DNA from: a virus
Lineage: Duplodnaviria; Caudoviricetes
Reading direction: 5' to 3' (one strand)
DNA: 30,810 nucleotides
IMG/VR virus record: IMGVR_UViG_3300030708_000581
Coordinates: 1-30,810 of that record
Shown here one piece after another: positions 20,631 to 26,551 of the stretch; the stretch's first letter is position 1; each line of letters starts with the position of its first letter. The translations under genes and the position numbers were made by a program. The notes below the pieces were generated by a model, which made no database searches, was not told where the DNA came from, and worked only from the letters and a program-made list of their open reading frames with translations.

Positions 20631-22880
20631 ATGGCAAACACAATCAAGCAGAAGCGTGGCACCACCGATCCTGGTGCCTCTGATCTTGTTGTAGGCGAAC
20701 TCGCCATCAATACCACTGACGGTGGTGTCTTCACCAAGACTGATGGTGGAACGGTTGTTGAGGTCGGGTCTGGTGGTGGTGGAATTGACGACGGCGATAA
20801 AGGCGACATTACTGTGTCAAACAGTGGTGCAACTTTTACCATTGATAATGGTGTCGTAAGCACTGCAAAGATTGCTGACGATGCGGTTACTGCCGCGAAG
20901 CTGGCTGACACTGCTGTAACAGCAGGAAGCTACACGGCTGCAGACATCACTGTTGATGCACAAGGTCGAATTACAGCCGCTAGTTCCGGTTCAATTAGCA
21001 CATCTGAAATTGCTGACGACGCAGTTACCGCCGCGAAATTAGCTGACACTGCTGTTACGGCTGGTAGCTATACAGCCGCAGACATTACAGTTGACGCCCA
21101 GGGTCGGATTACTGCTGCTGCTAATGGATCCGGTGGTGGTGCGTCTGCGATCGATGATCTTTCTGATGCTGTTACTTATGACAGTGGAGTCAGTGTTGGT
21201 CTTGGCACGGGTGCCTTAACTAATAGCAGTGGTACTGATCAGAACAATACGGCGCTTGGCTACAATGCTGGACTAGATTTAACTTCAGGGTCGAAAAATG
21301 TTCTTTTGGGTTATACGGCTGGTCGAGATATAACGACAGCTACCGCAAATATCGCCATCGGGGATACTCTTAACAGCTCTGCTGGTGTAACAGGTGGCTA
21401 CAACGTTGCTATTTCTGGTCATTTTTGTGGCAGGAAATTGACCACTGGAAATAACAACGTATTTATTGGTAGCAATGCCGGGGAAAAGGTAACAACTGGC
21501 GCTAGCAATGTACATATTGGCGATAACGCAGGCAATAGCGCAACCACAACGTCAGAAAATGTCTTTATAGGAAGACAAACTGCAAGATATAACACTGGAG
21601 GCCGTGGCGTCTGCCTTGGTGCCCGTGCGGGCGAGCGTGTGTCAGGCGATTACAACACGGTTATTGGCCATGAGGCTCATTACAACGTAAACCTGTCCGG
21701 CACGAATAACCTTATTCTTGGCGCTAACGCAGACGCAAGTTCAACAAGTGTTTCTAACGAAATCACGCTTGGTGATGCAAATATCACAAGCCTTCGCATC
21801 CCAGGCTTGCAGTCTGGTGCGTCTGACGGTCAGGTTCTGACTTACAACTCGACCAACGGAAACATCACCTTGGCTGATGCAGGTGGTGGTTTGTTGACGG
21901 AAGACGTGAACAATAACATTTATGGAGGGTCACACAGTTTTTCAAACCCAACTCTTACTGGTTCAGATAAAGCAGATAACAACGTTGCGATTGGCGAAAG
22001 AGTCATGATGGATATAACTGGCGGTGATAGAAACGTAGCCTTTGGGCTAAACGCCATGAAAGAAATAACAATGGGCTCCTACAATGTGGGGATTGGAGAC
22101 CACGCATGTGGAGGAAATTCAGCCGCTGCTTTTACCGGCGACGATAACGTCGCCATCGGTCGAGGAGCTTTAGATAGTGTAACTACAGGAGAAGGTAACG
22201 TAGCATTAGGCCTATCTGCTTTAGACAAATGCACTACGGGATCTTACAACATTGCTTTGGGTGAAAATTGTCTAAAAGACACAACAACCGGGGAATACAA
22301 CATTGCGATGGGAGAAGGCTCGCAAAGGTACGCAAGCGGCAGCAATAACATCAGCATGGGCTACAGAACTGCTCATAACATTAGTGGCGACAATAATACG
22401 CTGATTGGGGCCAGCATCCTTACAAGCAGCAGTGATTCTCTGTCTGGAAACGGCAACACTCTCATCGGCAGAGGTGCATCTCCTAGCAGCTCGTCTGTAA
22501 GCAACGAAATAACTTTAGGCAATTCAGGCATAAGCACGCTTCGTTGCAATCAGACATCAATTACCAGCCTTTCTGATGGACGCGACAAAATCAATGTTGC
22601 CGAACTGGGTGAAGGGCTTGATTTTGTTACACGCTTGAAGCCTGTCAAGTTTGAATGGAAAACACGCGACGGAAATATCAAGGACGGCACTTATGAGGCT
22701 GGCTTCATTGCCCAAGACCTGCAACAGCTGCAGAAAGACACTGATACCGACTATCTGAAGCTGGTTATGGATAGCAACCCAGATCGACTTGAGGCTTCTT
22801 ACGGAAAGCTCGTGCCAATTTTGGTACGTGCAATTCAGGAGCTAAAGTCTGAAGTGGAACAGCTCAAAGCAAATGCCTGA
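20631..22880 (+). CDS. receptor-binding tail fibre with C-terminal peptidase S74 intramolecular chaperone
   Basis: Mtd-N-like start, VDAQGRITAA repeats, two blocks of NxA(I/L)G beta-roll repeats, SDGRDK...LKPVKFEW...GFIAQDL and a terminal coiled coil. Confidence 0.88.
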   Translation: MANTIKQKRGTTDPGASDLVVGELAINTTDGGVFTKTDGGTVVEVGSGGGGIDDGDKGDITVSNSGATFTIDNGVVSTAKIADDAVTAAKLADTAVTAGSYTAADITVDAQGRITAASSGSISTSEIADDAVTAAKLADTAVTAGSYTAADITVDAQGRITAAANGSGGGASAIDDLSDAVTYDSGVSVGLGTGALTNSSGTDQNNTALGYNAGLDLTSGSKNVLLGYTAGRDITTATANIAIGDTLNSSAGVTGGYNVAISGHFCGRKLTTGNNNVFIGSNAGEKVTTGASNVHIGDNAGNSATTTSENVFIGRQTARYNTGGRGVCLGARAGERVSGDYNTVIGHEAHYNVNLSGTNNLILGANADASSTSVSNEITLGDANITSLRIPGLQSGASDGQVLTYNSTNGNITLADAGGGLLTEDVNNNIYGGSHSFSNPTLTGSDKADNNVAIGERVMMDITGGDRNVAFGLNAMKEITMGSYNVGIGDHACGGNSAAAFTGDDNVAIGRGALDSVTTGEGNVALGLSALDKCTTGSYNIALGENCLKDTTTGEYNIAMGEGSQRYASGSNNISMGYRTAHNISGDNNTLIGASILTSSSDSLSGNGNTLIGRGASPSSSSVSNEITLGNSGISTLRCNQTSITSLSDGRDKINVAELGEGLDFVTRLKPVKFEWKTRDGNIKDGTYEAGFIAQDLQQLQKDTDTDYLKLVMDSNPDRLEASYGKLVPILVRAIQELKSEVEQLKANA
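20871..21119 (+). repeat. two 111-nt intragenic direct repeats (20871-20981, 21009-21119)
   Basis: Both encode IADDAVTAAKLADTAVTAGSYTAADITVDAQGRITAA; period 138 nt. Confidence 0.9.
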
Positions 22881-23094: not shown

Positions 23095-23282
23095 TGCAAC
23101 GCCCTGATCCAATGATTTGCTCTAAGCCTGGGGCGGAGGATGTGATCGCCAACGCAAATCGGGTTGCTTGGATGGCCGCCTTGTTTGAGTTGGATGGGAG
23201 GGATCAGGTTAGTCACCCTATGTATGGCCTCTACACGGGCTTAGCCGCTAAATATCAGAGCTACCAGTCAACCGATGGCTAA
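23094..23282 (+). CDS. hypothetical protein
   Basis: 62 aa; TGATG coupling; LFELDGRD...HP..GLYTGL. Confidence 0.65.
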   Translation: MQRPDPMICSKPGAEDVIANANRVAWMAALFELDGRDQVSHPMYGLYTGLAAKYQSYQSTDG

Positions 23283-23397
23283 ATCTCTAAACGGCGAAAA
23301 CTTCATTTCAAAACACAATAAGCGGACCACTCAAGGTAATGGCCGAAATTCAAGGCCCAAAAGAGGGAAAAAACCTTATCGTGGCCAAGGTAAGTAA
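23275..23397 (+). CDS. 40-aa basic micro-protein ending YRGQGK
   Basis: MAKSLNGENFISKHNKRTTQGNGRNSRPKRGKKPYRGQGK; resembles small cyanophage YRGQG proteins. Not in the ORF track. Confidence 0.7.
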   Translation: MAKSLNGENFISKHNKRTTQGNGRNSRPKRGKKPYRGQGK

Positions 23398-23408
23398 CTC
23401 TCCTCACA

Positions 23409-23753
23409 ATGATCAAATCCTTTGTGACTGGTGCCGCCGCTTTTGCGGTCAGTGCATTGGCCCCCCTGTCTGTCTCCGCCGCTCCGGTTTACTTCAACCC
23501 CGAAGCTAACGTCGGGGCTGGTGAAGATGGGGTAACCGGCGCGACCGTTGACCTGCACCTGGGCGCTAAGGGTGATGGCTTCTTTGCCCAAATCGGTCCC
23601 ATGATTCAGGTTCCTGATACCGGCGACACTGAGGTGGGCGTCAGCGGTAAGGCGGGTTACAGCTTTGGCGCTGGGTACAGCGAGCTGTCTTTCACCAGCA
23701 TCGACTCCGACACCAGCTTTAATTTGAAAGTTGGCAAATCCCTCGACCTTTGA
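23409..23753 (+). CDS. small outer-membrane beta-barrel-like protein (cyanophage OMP-like)
   Basis: Signal peptide ending VSA; amphipathic strands VYFNPEANVG, TVDLHLG, FFAQIGP, VSGKAGYSF and FNLKVGKSL. Confidence 0.75.
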   Translation: MIKSFVTGAAAFAVSALAPLSVSAAPVYFNPEANVGAGEDGVTGATVDLHLGAKGDGFFAQIGPMIQVPDTGDTEVGVSGKAGYSFGAGYSELSFTSIDSDTSFNLKVGKSLDL

Positions 23754-23765
23754 GGTATAACCTAA

Positions 23766-23830
23766 GCGGAAGGGTGTTCCCCGACTCCGTTCCTCACACA
23801 GGCATGAGGCTCCCTAGCGGGGGCCTTTTG
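23766..23830 (+). ncRNA. candidate Yfr1-like small RNA
   Basis: 5' hairpin GCGGA..GGG/CCC..TCCGT, unpaired TCCTCACAC (23791-23799), then an intrinsic terminator; -10-like TATAACCT at 23756-23763. Confidence 0.65.
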
Positions 23831-23837
23831 TTTATTT
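23807..23837 (+). terminator. rho-independent terminator
   Basis: AGGCTCCC-TAGC-GGGGGCCT followed by TTTGTTTATTT. Confidence 0.85.
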
Positions 23838-23845
23838 AGGCAACC

Positions 23846-24076
23846 ATGCAGAAAATCATCAATGCTGTGGCAGCTAGCACCTTTTTGCTGGCTCTAGCAA
23901 ACACTGCGGTAATCGTGTTGGCGGTTACTCGTGGCCCCTCGATGGTCAAAAAGCACATCAACGACATCAAGCTGGAGCTGACGGAGACGCTGACTCAGAT
24001 GCTGCCGGGTGAGATTGAAGGGGCTCTGCCTGAGTTCCCGACTTCAACTGGCCCTGCAATTCCGTTTGGTCAGTAA
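23846..24076 (+). CDS. hypothetical membrane protein
   Basis: 76 aa; N-terminal hydrophobic helix; ends PEFPTSTGPAIPF. Confidence 0.7.
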   Translation: MQKIINAVAASTFLLALANTAVIVLAVTRGPSMVKKHINDIKLELTETLTQMLPGEIEGALPEFPTSTGPAIPFGQ

Positions 24077-24272: not shown

Positions 24273-24783
24273 GGATGAGATACCTGAAATTCAAATCCCT
24301 GAGCTTAATGTTGTCGTAGATCTGCCAGAAGTAGCGATACCAGATGTGCCGCCTGTGACGCTGGAGCTTGGCGTGCCAATCATCGATATGCCGTCGTTTA
24401 GTCCGTTGGATTTTGAGCCAGAAGTTGAACCAGTAAAGCCCAAGATTCCACGGATGCCAAAAAAGCCTGATCCAATAGAGGCTGTCAAAAACATCCGACT
24501 GCCTGAAAAGCCTAAGCCTGTGCCTGTGGCAGAAGTTGAGGAAAGCAAGCCGCTGGTGCAACAGGTTATTGAGGCTATCCCTACGCTGCCTCAAGCAACC
24601 ACTGTGGCGGCATCTTCTGTGATTGGTGTATCAGCAGCTCTTGCGACTCCTTTTCTGTTGAGGTTGATCAAGCCAACAGTGAAGAAGGTGGCGAAGAAAC
24701 TGCAGAAGGCGTTGGGCAAAAAACCCAAGGTTGAGTCGGTTATGGAGCGTCGGAAGTTTCAGCGGTCTTTACGACCGAAATAG
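24271..24783 (+). CDS. Pro-rich membrane-anchored hypothetical protein
   Basis: Acidic/Pro-rich N-terminal part, hydrophobic segment VAASSVIGVSAALATPFLL, basic C-terminus. Confidence 0.7.
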   Translation: MDEIPEIQIPELNVVVDLPEVAIPDVPPVTLELGVPIIDMPSFSPLDFEPEVEPVKPKIPRMPKKPDPIEAVKNIRLPEKPKPVPVAEVEESKPLVQQVIEAIPTLPQATTVAASSVIGVSAALATPFLLRLIKPTVKKVAKKLQKALGKKPKVESVMERRKFQRSLRPK

Positions 24784-25540
24784 GGTGTGTGTGGGGCGTT
24801 GGGTGATTGATCACAATATCGGCGCAAACCTTCCTGTAAGGGCTTGATTTGACGAACTGGATTCCTTTGCTTAGCAACTCACCGCATACCCGTGCACGAG
24901 AAAGTTCAAAATCCAGACGCTTGTTGGCTAGCTGTTGTTTTTGCAGATCAAGTTGCAGGTCAACAGCTTTTTTACAACGTGCCTGCAAGCCGCCATCTAG
25001 CGGGATTGTGGCCTGAATCGACAAGCCCAGATTCCAGTTGTGCTGGTCTTTCTGCCCAGTTCTGGTGTCCTTGAAGAACAGGGTGGCCCCAGGATTATCG
25101 AGACGGCCATCCTCGTCTAAATCGCTAAGGTCATACACAGGATCTTGGTAAGAATACTCGTATGGCAACCCCCATGATTTGGTGCGGTTAGCATACGGCG
25201 TAACCGTCAAAGTTGGCCCCTGGCACTGTATAGATCCCCCGTAGGTGTTTGTGATAGCGGAGCCCTGTAAAATTTGCACCGCTTGATTACTAACTGAGCC
25301 TGAACTTGTCGCCGTAGGTGATGCTGTGGCTGAAATTCCCCCTATATCGTTTGCATTTACAGGAGCGCAAAAAATTACTCCGAGAAGGAGGAAACCGTAT
25401 CTACGACGCTTGTCACCTCGGTGACTCTTTGCACCGTTGTTCTGTTGCTGAGACCTGGCCCGCGATACGTTTCCGTGAACTGGAACGATTTGGCAGGATC
25501 GACAACTGACCAGTTCGGTCGTTTTCCTAAGGATGTCCAT
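24740..25540 (-). CDS. exported protein with OEP/TolC-like strand-helix motif (start uncertain)
   Basis: Signal-like KRRRYGFLLLGVIFCAPVNA; mature GGISATASP...NQAVQILQG...CQGPTL; WNLGLSIQATIPLDGG followed by a coiled coil. Confidence 0.7.
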   Translation of the reverse strand: MDILRKTTELVSCRSCQIVPVHGNVSRARSQQQNNGAKSHRGDKRRRYGFLLLGVIFCAPVNANDIGGISATASPTATSSGSVSNQAVQILQGSAITNTYGGSIQCQGPTLTVTPYANRTKSWGLPYEYSYQDPVYDLSDLDEDGRLDNPGATLFFKDTRTGQKDQHNWNLGLSIQATIPLDGGLQARCKKAVDLQLDLQKQQLANKRLDFELSRARVCGELLSKGIQFVKSSPYRKVCADIVINHPTPHTHPISVVKTAETSDAP

Positions 25541-25767
25541 CCGTTGACGGTGGTTTCAGAAATCGGATTGATGTAGGTGTCGGCCTCTACGTTTGTCCCT
25601 GTGGCTGTGTATTCAAAGCCTGTATTAAACTCCTCGCTAACGATTGTCTCAGTTACCTTGCTGGTCGTCTCTTGATGAGACGTAAGCGTACCAGTTTTGA
25701 AATTAGGTATGACCGGCACGCTATGTGCAGCTGGCGCTAACAACAACAGCAGCAATACGGCTTTCAT
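25375..25767 (-). CDS. exported Thr/Ser-rich beta protein
   Basis: Signal peptide MKAVLLLLLLAPAAHS; VPVIPNF..G...FQFTETY.GPGL; TGATG coupling. Confidence 0.8.
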   Translation of the reverse strand: MKAVLLLLLLAPAAHSVPVIPNFKTGTLTSHQETTSKVTETIVSEEFNTGFEYTATGTNVEADTYINPISETTVNGWTSLGKRPNWSVVDPAKSFQFTETYRGPGLSNRTTVQRVTEVTSVVDTVSSFSE

Positions 25768-26273
25768 CAGTTAGCAGTGATTGACGTCACCACTTGACCA
25801 ACGGCCTGAGTCCCGGCCCCGCCTGCGGTTATAGCGAGAGAATGGCCTGAATCGATTGTTCCGGCTAGGGAGCCCGCGACTCCTCCACTCTGAACAACGT
25901 TGATGCCAAGCAATGGCAGTGAACCAGCAACACCGCTGGTGATGGTCACAGTCGAAGGCGTGTCATCACCTTCCATGTAGGTCTCGCTGAAGCTCCAGCT
26001 GCCAGTACCGGACAGTGTTGGAACGGTCCCGGTGTAATCAACAGCTGAACCGCTAGTCAAATCGTCAAGGCTGCCGATCTGGTTTGCAGTGCCACCAGAG
26101 GAAACACTGACGCCCATGCCGCTGACGCTGTAGGAGCTGCCAACACGAGTGGCAGAGGTTGCAGCACCATCCACGGCCAGGCTGACCGAACTCTGGATCT
26201 TATGCGTGATGTCCGCCTTAGCAGGCAAGGCAGCCGCCAATGTGATGCCCAATACCAAAAGTGCGCGGGTCAT
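25767..26273 (-). CDS. exported Ser/Gly/Thr-rich beta protein
   Basis: Signal peptide ending AKA; DITHKIQSSVSL.VD...WSFSETYMEGD...TAGGAGT.A.GQ; ATGA coupling. Confidence 0.8.
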   Translation of the reverse strand: MTRALLVLGITLAAALPAKADITHKIQSSVSLAVDGAATSATRVGSSYSVSGMGVSVSSGGTANQIGSLDDLTSGSAVDYTGTVPTLSGTGSWSFSETYMEGDDTPSTVTITSGVAGSLPLLGINVVQSGGVAGSLAGTIDSGHSLAITAGGAGTQAVGQVVTSITAN

Positions 26274-26551
26274 TTGATGCCGGAGCGAGTGTGGCTGTTA
26301 TCTACGTTAACTCCATTGTCTTCCTTCTTTTTCTTACCAAGTTTCCCCAAGGCTGGCGTGTAAGTCGCCGCCGTCCCTGTCAACAAGCTGGCCGGGAAAG
26401 TTGGATCCACAGACTGCGAAAAGATCCCCAGATAATTCGCTGTGAGGATACCCATCGACCACAGCAGGATGGTCACGCGGACGACATCACCTAGCCATGA
26501 GTGCTGTTGATCATCCTGTTCTTCCGGCTTGGTTTGCGGTGTTTCTGCCAT
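26270..26551 (-). CDS. small membrane protein with two hydrophobic segments
   Basis: VVRVTILLWSMGILTANYLGIF and DPTFPASLLTGTAATY; basic KKKK tail; first gene of the inverted cluster. Confidence 0.75.
   Translation of the reverse strand: MAETPQTKPEEQDDQQHSWLGDVVRVTILLWSMGILTANYLGIFSQSVDPTFPASLLTGTAATYTPALGKLGKKKKEDNGVNVDNSHTRSGIK

Follow-up and report, generated by a model that had tools for sequence, protein, structure and literature searches.

A conserved Yfr1-seed RNA element behind the outer-membrane protein gene of a cyanosiphovirus group and its predicted pairing with host porin messages

The locus and its outer-membrane protein

The stretch of DNA analysed in this study, here called the window, is a virus record of 30,810 nt with an estimated completeness of 80%. 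Matches to PHROG and Pfam profiles describe its genes as of the siphovirus type, with lambda-like tail tip proteins and a central fibre J, and they include several gene families typical of cyanophages. Since 126 of the 128 records that match its outer-membrane protein (OMP) are named Synechococcus phage, Prochlorococcus phage or Cyanophage, the host is presumably a marine picocyanobacterium. A blastn search with the RNA of a relative against 50,697 phage records returned short chance matches only, and we thus found no cultured member of this siphovirus group. The locus comprises the following features:

20631..22880, + strand: last tail fibre/spike gene with an intramolecular chaperone (PHROG tail spike, E 6e-63; Pfam Peptidase_S74)
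23275..23397, + strand: 40-aa basic peptide, phrog_516 (E 2e-6), the usual upstream neighbour of the OMP slot
23409..23753, + strand: Phage_OMP (PF24653, phrog_417, DUF680/PhCOG173), 114 aa, from Pfam, PHROG and AlphaFold2
23754..23761, + strand: predicted -10 element, G-n-TATAAC, directly 3' of the OMP stop, with a geometry conserved in relatives
23768..23833, + strand: predicted small RNA of about 65 nt with a Yfr1-like layout of 5' hairpin, single-stranded seed and terminator, placed by the +1 purine of the relatives and the fold
23790..23801, + strand: seed UUCCUCACACAG, containing CCUCACACA, the exact complement of UGUGUGAGG in som 5' UTRs
23806..23833, + strand: intrinsic terminator hairpin (23806-23827) and U tract, shared by the OMP message and the RNA
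23846..24076, + strand: 76-aa protein, phrog_568 (labelled 'plasmid stability'), the usual downstream neighbour of OMP and RNA, used as an independent anchor

A first, sequence-only reading of this DNA had placed the OMP gene directly behind the receptor-binding fibre genes, which was not borne out, as three small ORFs of 73, 62 and 40 aa are located between the end of the fibre gene at 22880 and the OMP start at 23409. At most loci with a called upstream ORF, the phrog_516 peptide directly precedes the OMP gene. This peptide is very basic, ends in YRGQGK and is kept before the OMP in many relatives, and its high charge suggests nucleic-acid binding. Its length was insufficient for use as a search anchor. 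At two loci (L505 and L507), a DNA-methyltransferase-like gene takes the place of peptide, OMP and RNA in front of the phrog_568 gene. Further downstream, the reverse strand of the window (24740-26551) carries four small genes of unassigned function (phrog_848, 650, 564 and 721), three of which have signal-peptide-like starts. This block, which is also present in the complete relative G001 (where three of the four genes were scanned), is possibly a further surface module.

The 114-residue protein was assigned to the Phage_OMP family by a score of 42.4 bits with the profile PF24653, compared to a cut-off of 27, in an alignment that covers profile positions 1-117 of 122, and by its PHROG match to phrog_417. 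As judged from the sequence, the N-terminus resembles a signal peptide, which leaves a mature part of about 90 residues, as had been proposed, and A24 is nearly invariant among the aligned homologues. Of the six to seven strands suggested for the mature protein, AlphaFold2, supplied with 39 sequences, predicts six, preceded by a low-confidence N-terminal helix (mean pLDDT 82), and the monomer model, which had been put forward as a check, thus takes the shape of a six-stranded half barrel. In a structural comparison (VIA), the top matches are transmembrane barrels with Z-scores of 8.4-9.0, close to the background of 7-8, namely a designed barrel (Z 9.0, rmsd 3.4, 87 aligned), OprF (Z 8.7, rmsd 3.9, 87 aligned) and PagL (Z 8.4, rmsd 3.9, 90 aligned), and a Foldseek search with the model gave no match at E ≤ 0.001. 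Barrel assembly usually involves an aromatic residue at the C-terminus; of the 39 aligned homologues, 26 end in Phe and 13 in Leu, and the window protein ends in Leu, which would count against its assembly as a barrel.

Six-stranded OMPs related to IPR056410/DUF680 have been described in a preprint as incomplete barrels and modelled as a flattened 12-stranded dimer (bioRxiv 10.64898/2026.10.24.761521). Based on the matching name, IPR056410 would be the InterPro counterpart of PF24653. The window protein is a member of this cyanophage Phage_OMP family (PF24653, DUF680, PhCOG173, IPR056410), and the protein half of our finding, comprising the family, the six strands and the modelled dimer, is already known, whereas the novelty lies in the RNA. 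In cultured phages the homologues bear the annotation DUF680, a protein that was reported not to be particle-associated in S-TIM4 and to have been lost through mutations in every population that was grown on WH8102 (Enav et al., PMC6224464). A member of the OMP family was detected in one virion preparation (PMC9146016), which weighs against the explanation that we favour below. When host copies of the gene were sought in genome-collection contigs with two short peptide patterns, seven loci were found on phage-like contigs, none of them titled as a cyanobacterium, which is weak evidence of absence.

The RNA element and its linkage to the OMP gene

Behind the OMP stop codon follow, in this order, a -10-like box, a 6-nt spacer, a purine start at 23768, the Yfr1 seed CCUCACAC and a terminator. 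The Yfr1-like element that had been recognised next to the OMP gene was thus confirmed, with TCCTCACA at 23791-23798 preceding the hairpin at 23806-23827. The region 23760-23835 folds with a z-score of -2.8 and the seed of the window is predicted to be 0.84 unpaired. Because the window alone does not exceed chance, with three copies of the 8-mer TCCTCACA compared to 1.06 expected and 10 of 100 shuffles reaching the same number, the support for the element comes from its relatives.

These relatives were collected with three anchors. A protein-first search gave 52 loci, 49 of which extend for at least 75 nt behind the OMP stop; YTCACAC is found within 70 nt of the stop in 46 and YYCACAC in 48 of these 49, compared to a background for YTCACAC of 63 in 5174 bins of 70 nt, true sites included. 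A motif-first search used a pattern of seed and terminator with no protein information, which was tailored to a single type of terminator and would overlook others. It gave at least 119 loci; among the matches listed, 89 have an OMP stop 18-40 nt upstream, seven are too short and 23 lack an OMP, which amounts to 89 of 112 with an OMP once the short loci are excluded. Since two pyrimidines precede TCACACA in four of the 23 OMP-less loci, which is about the chance rate, we read the latter as chance matches. Finally, a neighbour-first search covered the best 80 of 462 loci of the downstream phrog_568 gene, of which 76 contain an OMP, two contain neither OMP nor seed and two are too short, and all 76 OMP genes found by profile carry the seed within 75 nt of their stop. 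The seed stays behind the OMP stop where an extra gene sits before the phrog_568 neighbour. The three sets overlap and reduce to 118 distinct downstream sequences, and since the relatives are phylogenetically linked, their counts do not represent independent events. Together, these searches support a conserved Yfr1-seed RNA element in close association with the OMP gene of these siphoviruses.

Upon alignment on the first TA after the stop, 117 of the 118 sequences line up, the remaining one being a frameshifted call that was left out, with the TA at a fixed offset and a G at -14 in 109 of them. The hexamer is TATAAC in 80 copies, and TAGTCT, TAGAAC, TAGCCT, TAACTT and others are found at the same place; its -7 position is occupied by C in 88 and T in 28 of the 117 relatives, and 28 copies show the canonical TAnnnT. 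The hexamer is followed by a six-base spacer of variable sequence, with a pyrimidine at -1 in 84 copies and a purine at +1 in 116 of 117, and the hairpins begin at +1 or one base later. Such a spacing and box correspond to sigma-70-type promoter geometry, although the C at -7 is atypical for a sigma-70 promoter, and a scan of the site with the sigma-70 consensus did not call it. The sequence-only reading had proposed that gene and RNA share a terminator. One terminator indeed appears to serve both, and none was found between the OMP gene and the element; however, the conserved geometry suggests that the RNA probably also has a promoter of its own. In one metatranscriptome 4% of the words were present, and its contigs cover parts of the gene and its flanks and carry no start or level information.

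The seed is predicted to be unpaired (at least 0.7) in 116 of the 117 relatives and it is presented in three folds, residing in the loop of the 5' hairpin in 79, in the terminator loop in 25 and between two stems in 13, latter of which includes the window. In the 4-bp 5' stem, 92% of the positions are paired, a value reached by none of 500 shuffles and no slid control, and three of its four pairs show compensatory changes; the comparison comprised 13 of 25 distinct short 5' variants that were chosen for one loop register and whose structure was derived from the same sequences, which favours it. The two variable positions of the seed are each occupied by C or U in 116 of 118 sequences.

The comparison with host RNAs points to a likeness in action. 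Yfr1 carries ACUCCUCACAC (PMC2518516), which is located between two stems in Yfr1 and in a loop in Yfr10 (PMC6778093). The phage element shares the seed core CCUCACAC and the size of Yfr1 (RF01116) and of Yfr10, Yfr12 and Yfr18 (RF02362), with a single-stranded, Yfr1-like seed between two stems in the window and the other relatives of its form and a Yfr10-like hairpin loop in most relatives. It differs in being phage-borne and tied to an OMP gene, and it is flanked by PF24653 and phrog_568, whereas Yfr1 sits between guaB and trxA. The full 11-mer is not kept: the window has GUUCCUCACAC, with 9 of 11 positions, the relatives vary at the 5' side, and in the phage seeds the AC at the 5' end of ACUCCUCACAC is missing, as is its last C in most of them. 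The Yfr1 model RF01116 (threshold 38 bits) gave no match on the window record at E ≤ 10, the Yfr10 model RF02362 (threshold 43 bits) none in the window at E ≤ 10 and none in the loci of eight relatives at E ≤ 1, and Rfam scans of the window, a 700-bp region and 14 loci gave nothing near a gathering score. We have thus rejected membership in either Rfam family, and from its seed we expect the element to work like Yfr1 and Yfr10 while belonging to neither.

The pairing of gene and RNA has its limits in other phages. From this group, an OMP homologue is matched by 466 phage records, with mostly myoviruses and some podoviruses among the best 60 of the 466. No seed tail follows the stop in 12 homologues from nine cultured myo- and podoviruses, where the gene precedes glutaredoxin, psbA, hli or a paralogue with pstS, or in eight OMP genes on seven genome-collection contigs. 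In five whole cultured phage genomes, the 22 matches to YYTCACACA all lie inside open frames of at least 72 codons and none is element-like. The co-occurrence across cyanophages that had been anticipated thus holds within the siphovirus group (46/49, 89/112 listed, 76/76) but not in these cultured viruses, and the pair of OMP and RNA is not a universal cyanophage cassette. An independent occurrence of the two, which had been named as an argument against a joint function, is found in one direction, and the protein is not dependent on the RNA, given that it is encoded alone in the cultured myo- and podoviruses. In a tree of 57 mature proteins (100 columns, with many forks open), the 39 seed-bearing OMPs do not form one group; it contains four label changes, at least two of them forced by well-supported branches, and one locus, L130, is placed inside a myovirus clade. 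The simplest reading of this tree is that OMP alleles move between phage types while the RNA stays with the siphovirus slot.

Several observations concern the family outside of this group. Four myovirus OMP-family genes (L056:1370-1428, L057:1380-1431, L059:1380-1431, L208:585-634) share a conserved leader with a hairpin and then TCATCTGCGGGTAAYCATTCCGCAAGTAA just before the start; Rfam gave no match for the leaders of L056, L057 and L059, and it is possible that they represent a cis-regulatory RNA of the same gene family. A second, divergent OMP paralogue is found directly before pstS in three myoviruses (L056:1983-2351, L058:2001-2360, L210:1252-1608), a position that suggests a phosphate pore for that branch. 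In L184 (1112-1180) and L185 (4342-4410), a podovirus-type OMP gene located in front of psbA has a hairpin behind it whose loop contains GTGAG, which is part of the target and not of the seed. Since its OMP and the DNA that follows appear identical to those of cyanophage P-TIM40, the 188-kb contig L182 from a Nonlabens isolate assembly is probably a cyanomyovirus genome inside a bacterial assembly.

Predicted pairing with host Som porin messages

In E. coli, Yfr1 lowers the translation of the porin genes PMM1119 and PMM1121 3.0- and 2.7-fold, an effect that is abolished in seed mutants (PMC2796815), and the leaders of both genes contain TGTGTGAGG just before the start (PMC2796815 supplement). 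The CCUCACACA of the window is the exact complement of TGTGTGAGG in som leaders, which agrees with the proposed silencing of host porins, as the seed would pair with the validated Yfr1 site. The changes in the phage seeds are compatible with G-U pairs to GUGUGAGG, the proven target of Yfr1 where the Som porin genes of the host begin, and the restriction of this variation to C and U implies that pairing with GG is kept. By sequence and predicted fold, the phage seed is thus exposed and complementary to the ribosome-binding site of som messages.

A metagenome scan for the target site followed by the first four codons covered 127 loci of an estimated 2300 and gave 132 pattern matches, of which 114 begin Som-like by a simple pattern, with some duplicates and at least one false positive (L273). 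An OprB porin domain was found in six of eight tested site-bearing proteins, the other two being shorter, from low-GC contigs and without a Pfam match. The site precedes Som-like starts in both low- and high-GC contigs, with 25 of 89 distinct leaders located on contigs of at least 50% GC, the range of Synechococcus and Cyanobium, and TGTGAG was found in none of 89 control starts of the same contigs. The pairing energy of -18.6 compared to -7.6 kcal/mol shows a gap that is partly circular, since the porin set was selected for the target site; for the same reason, this set gives no fraction of porin genes that bear the site, and one unselected paralogue has just CTGAGG. As Yfr1 and Yfr10 pull down 206 and 253 mRNAs, respectively (PMC6778093), porins need not be the target that matters.

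The phage itself appears to be spared from this interaction. No GTGAGG target site is contained in the ribosome-binding region of the window OMP, the som-type site is found in 0 of 65 phage OMP leaders, and in the window no TGTGAGR or GTGTGAR lies at a listed gene start on the coding strand. A seed-like copy of TCCTCACA in the window's own OMP leader (23401-23408) was set aside because it is not conserved, with CTCACA in just 4 of 65 leaders. Among 43 matches in viral contigs, none begins Som-like, and we thus found no phage-borne porin gene with the target site. Some host picocyanobacterial porin genes show the same order of barrel gene, stop, seed and terminator, and 12 of 36 complete genes contain a wobble-compatible seed within 80 nt behind the stop, compared to 58 of 2930 bins. 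Low-GC host porin genes of 345-415 aa (L259, L265, L272, L280, L284, L295, L300, L302, L310, L328) have CTTACAC(A)C or CTACACAC between stop and terminator, and the high-GC porin tails L271 and L274 have CCTCACAC, with a second partial copy in L271. Since the host porin messages also bear the target site, their tails would form a feedback loop, whereas the phage RNA would act one-way, as the phage OMP gene lacks the site and would thus be immune to its own RNA.

Proposed function and alternative explanations

The arrangement has a counterpart in IpeX of the coliphage porin locus and the cryptic prophage DLP12, where a phage outer-membrane pore gene is followed by a small RNA that lowers OmpC and OmpF (PMC12197685, PMC5069750), and in the group described here a small RNA element similarly lies directly downstream of the OMP gene. 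IpeX is processed from the porin transcript (PMC12197685), requires Hfq for at least some targets and resides in a prophage, whereas the RNA of the window has a predicted promoter of its own and no integrase was found in five long relatives. According to one review IpeX does not rely on complementarity alone, whereas the window RNA carries the host Yfr1 seed with perfect complementarity, and its partner is a predicted six-stranded half barrel. The likeness is thus one of layout and logic, and Rfam gave no match for the window element. A search by titles and abstract openings, with most subscription journals outside its scope, found no report of a phage-borne RNA with a Yfr1 motif; the available passages of PMC12873609, PMC10811720 and PMC5069720 contain nothing on the subject, and those of a 2025 review name just CfrI, abiF, wcaG, manA and glnA for cyanophages.

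In the explanation that we favour with moderate confidence, the RNA would repress the translation of host porins and thereby create space for the phage pore in the lytic cycle. Transcription from the predicted promoter 3' of the OMP stop would yield a separate small RNA that occupies the ribosome-binding site of host Som porin mRNAs and reduces their translation. The six-stranded phage protein, likely as a dimer, would meanwhile enter the outer membrane. Most likely, this exchange would serve to relieve the machinery for export and barrel assembly and to alter the permeability of the membrane in lytic growth. We read it as a balancing of outer-membrane protein synthesis rather than a removal of receptors because a third of the host porin tails examined carry the same layout.

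The same molecular action could instead serve superinfection exclusion, as suggested in the sequence-only reading, with fewer or masked Som porins leaving fewer receptors for later phages. The position of the locus behind fibre genes in a genome that encodes a lambda-like central fibre J would fit this purpose, and the preprint cited above, which refers to the block of LamB by lambda Lom, raises the idea for phage OMPs in general (bioRxiv 10.64898/2026.10.24.761521). We regard it as unlikely, since a block of translation within one lytic cycle would leave existing porins in place, and no porin is named as a marine cyanophage receptor in the titles and abstract openings searched. Moreover, no tyrosine or serine integrase (PF00589, PF00239) was found in five long relatives, four of which are at least 90% complete, and no integrase or repressor label among the 32 of 61 ORFs scanned in the complete relative; the window contains a weak excisionase-like match (E 2e-4). 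Lysogenic conversion and a lysogenic form of exclusion are thus unsupported.

If anything slightly less probable is a role of the RNA as decoy for host Yfr2 RNAs, or as an additional Yfr1 or Yfr10 acting on carbon and energy genes, whose place beside the OMP would be historical. The binding of Yfr2 to Yfr1 and Yfr10 is stronger than that of the mRNA ppa, and both RNAs have many metabolic targets (PMC6778093). The commonest phage fold, with the seed in a loop, is the arrangement of Yfr10. However, for 115 of 118 phage seeds the som sites are the better pairing partner compared to the 11-nt 5' motif of Yfr2, as judged with one published Prochlorococcus motif, and the seeds have lost the ends of ACUCCUCACAC described above; in addition, the element tracks the OMP stop even where another gene is inserted downstream.

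Our preferred account assumes a separate RNA. We consider it quite improbable that the element instead lacks a promoter and constitutes the 3' tail of the OMP or a late message, acting there, after processing as in IpeX (PMC12197685), or just in cis on stability. The continuity between gene and element would agree with such a tail, as would short RNA-library contigs of relatives that span the end of the OMP gene into the element, with DNA contamination possible, and the unusual C at -7. It would not account for the fixed 6-nt spacer of variable sequence, the +1 purine, the start of the hairpins at or one base behind this position and the 28 copies of TAnnnT, and a role in cis leaves the C/U-only variation of the exposed loop unexplained. 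That the motif is a neutral relic or a part of the terminator carried by descent, as might be suspected from related phages and a window that by itself is not above chance, is very improbable and already largely refuted by the conservation of a seed that moves between three folds while spacer, stems, terminator and protein (31-88% identity to the window OMP) change.

Taken further, and with less than even confidence in the full picture, a widespread group of apparently non-integrating marine cyanosiphoviruses would have captured the seed of Yfr1, the most conserved cyanobacterial regulatory RNA, placed it in at least three folds under a promoter of its own, and would use it to stop the synthesis of host Som porins, in whose place a half barrel of 90 residues would be installed that forms a replacement pore as a dimer. 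In this role it would be an auxiliary regulatory RNA through which the outer membrane of picocyanobacteria is remodelled upon infection. Host metabolic proteins are known from cyanophages, and with a host regulatory RNA copied as well, their take-over of the cell would extend to a second level. The tie to porin control would also offer a first concrete approach to DUF680/PhCOG173, a gene present in nearly all cyanophages. Som porins are major routes by which nutrients enter the most abundant marine phototrophs, and their swap during infection, if true, could change the uptake and leakage of infected cells.
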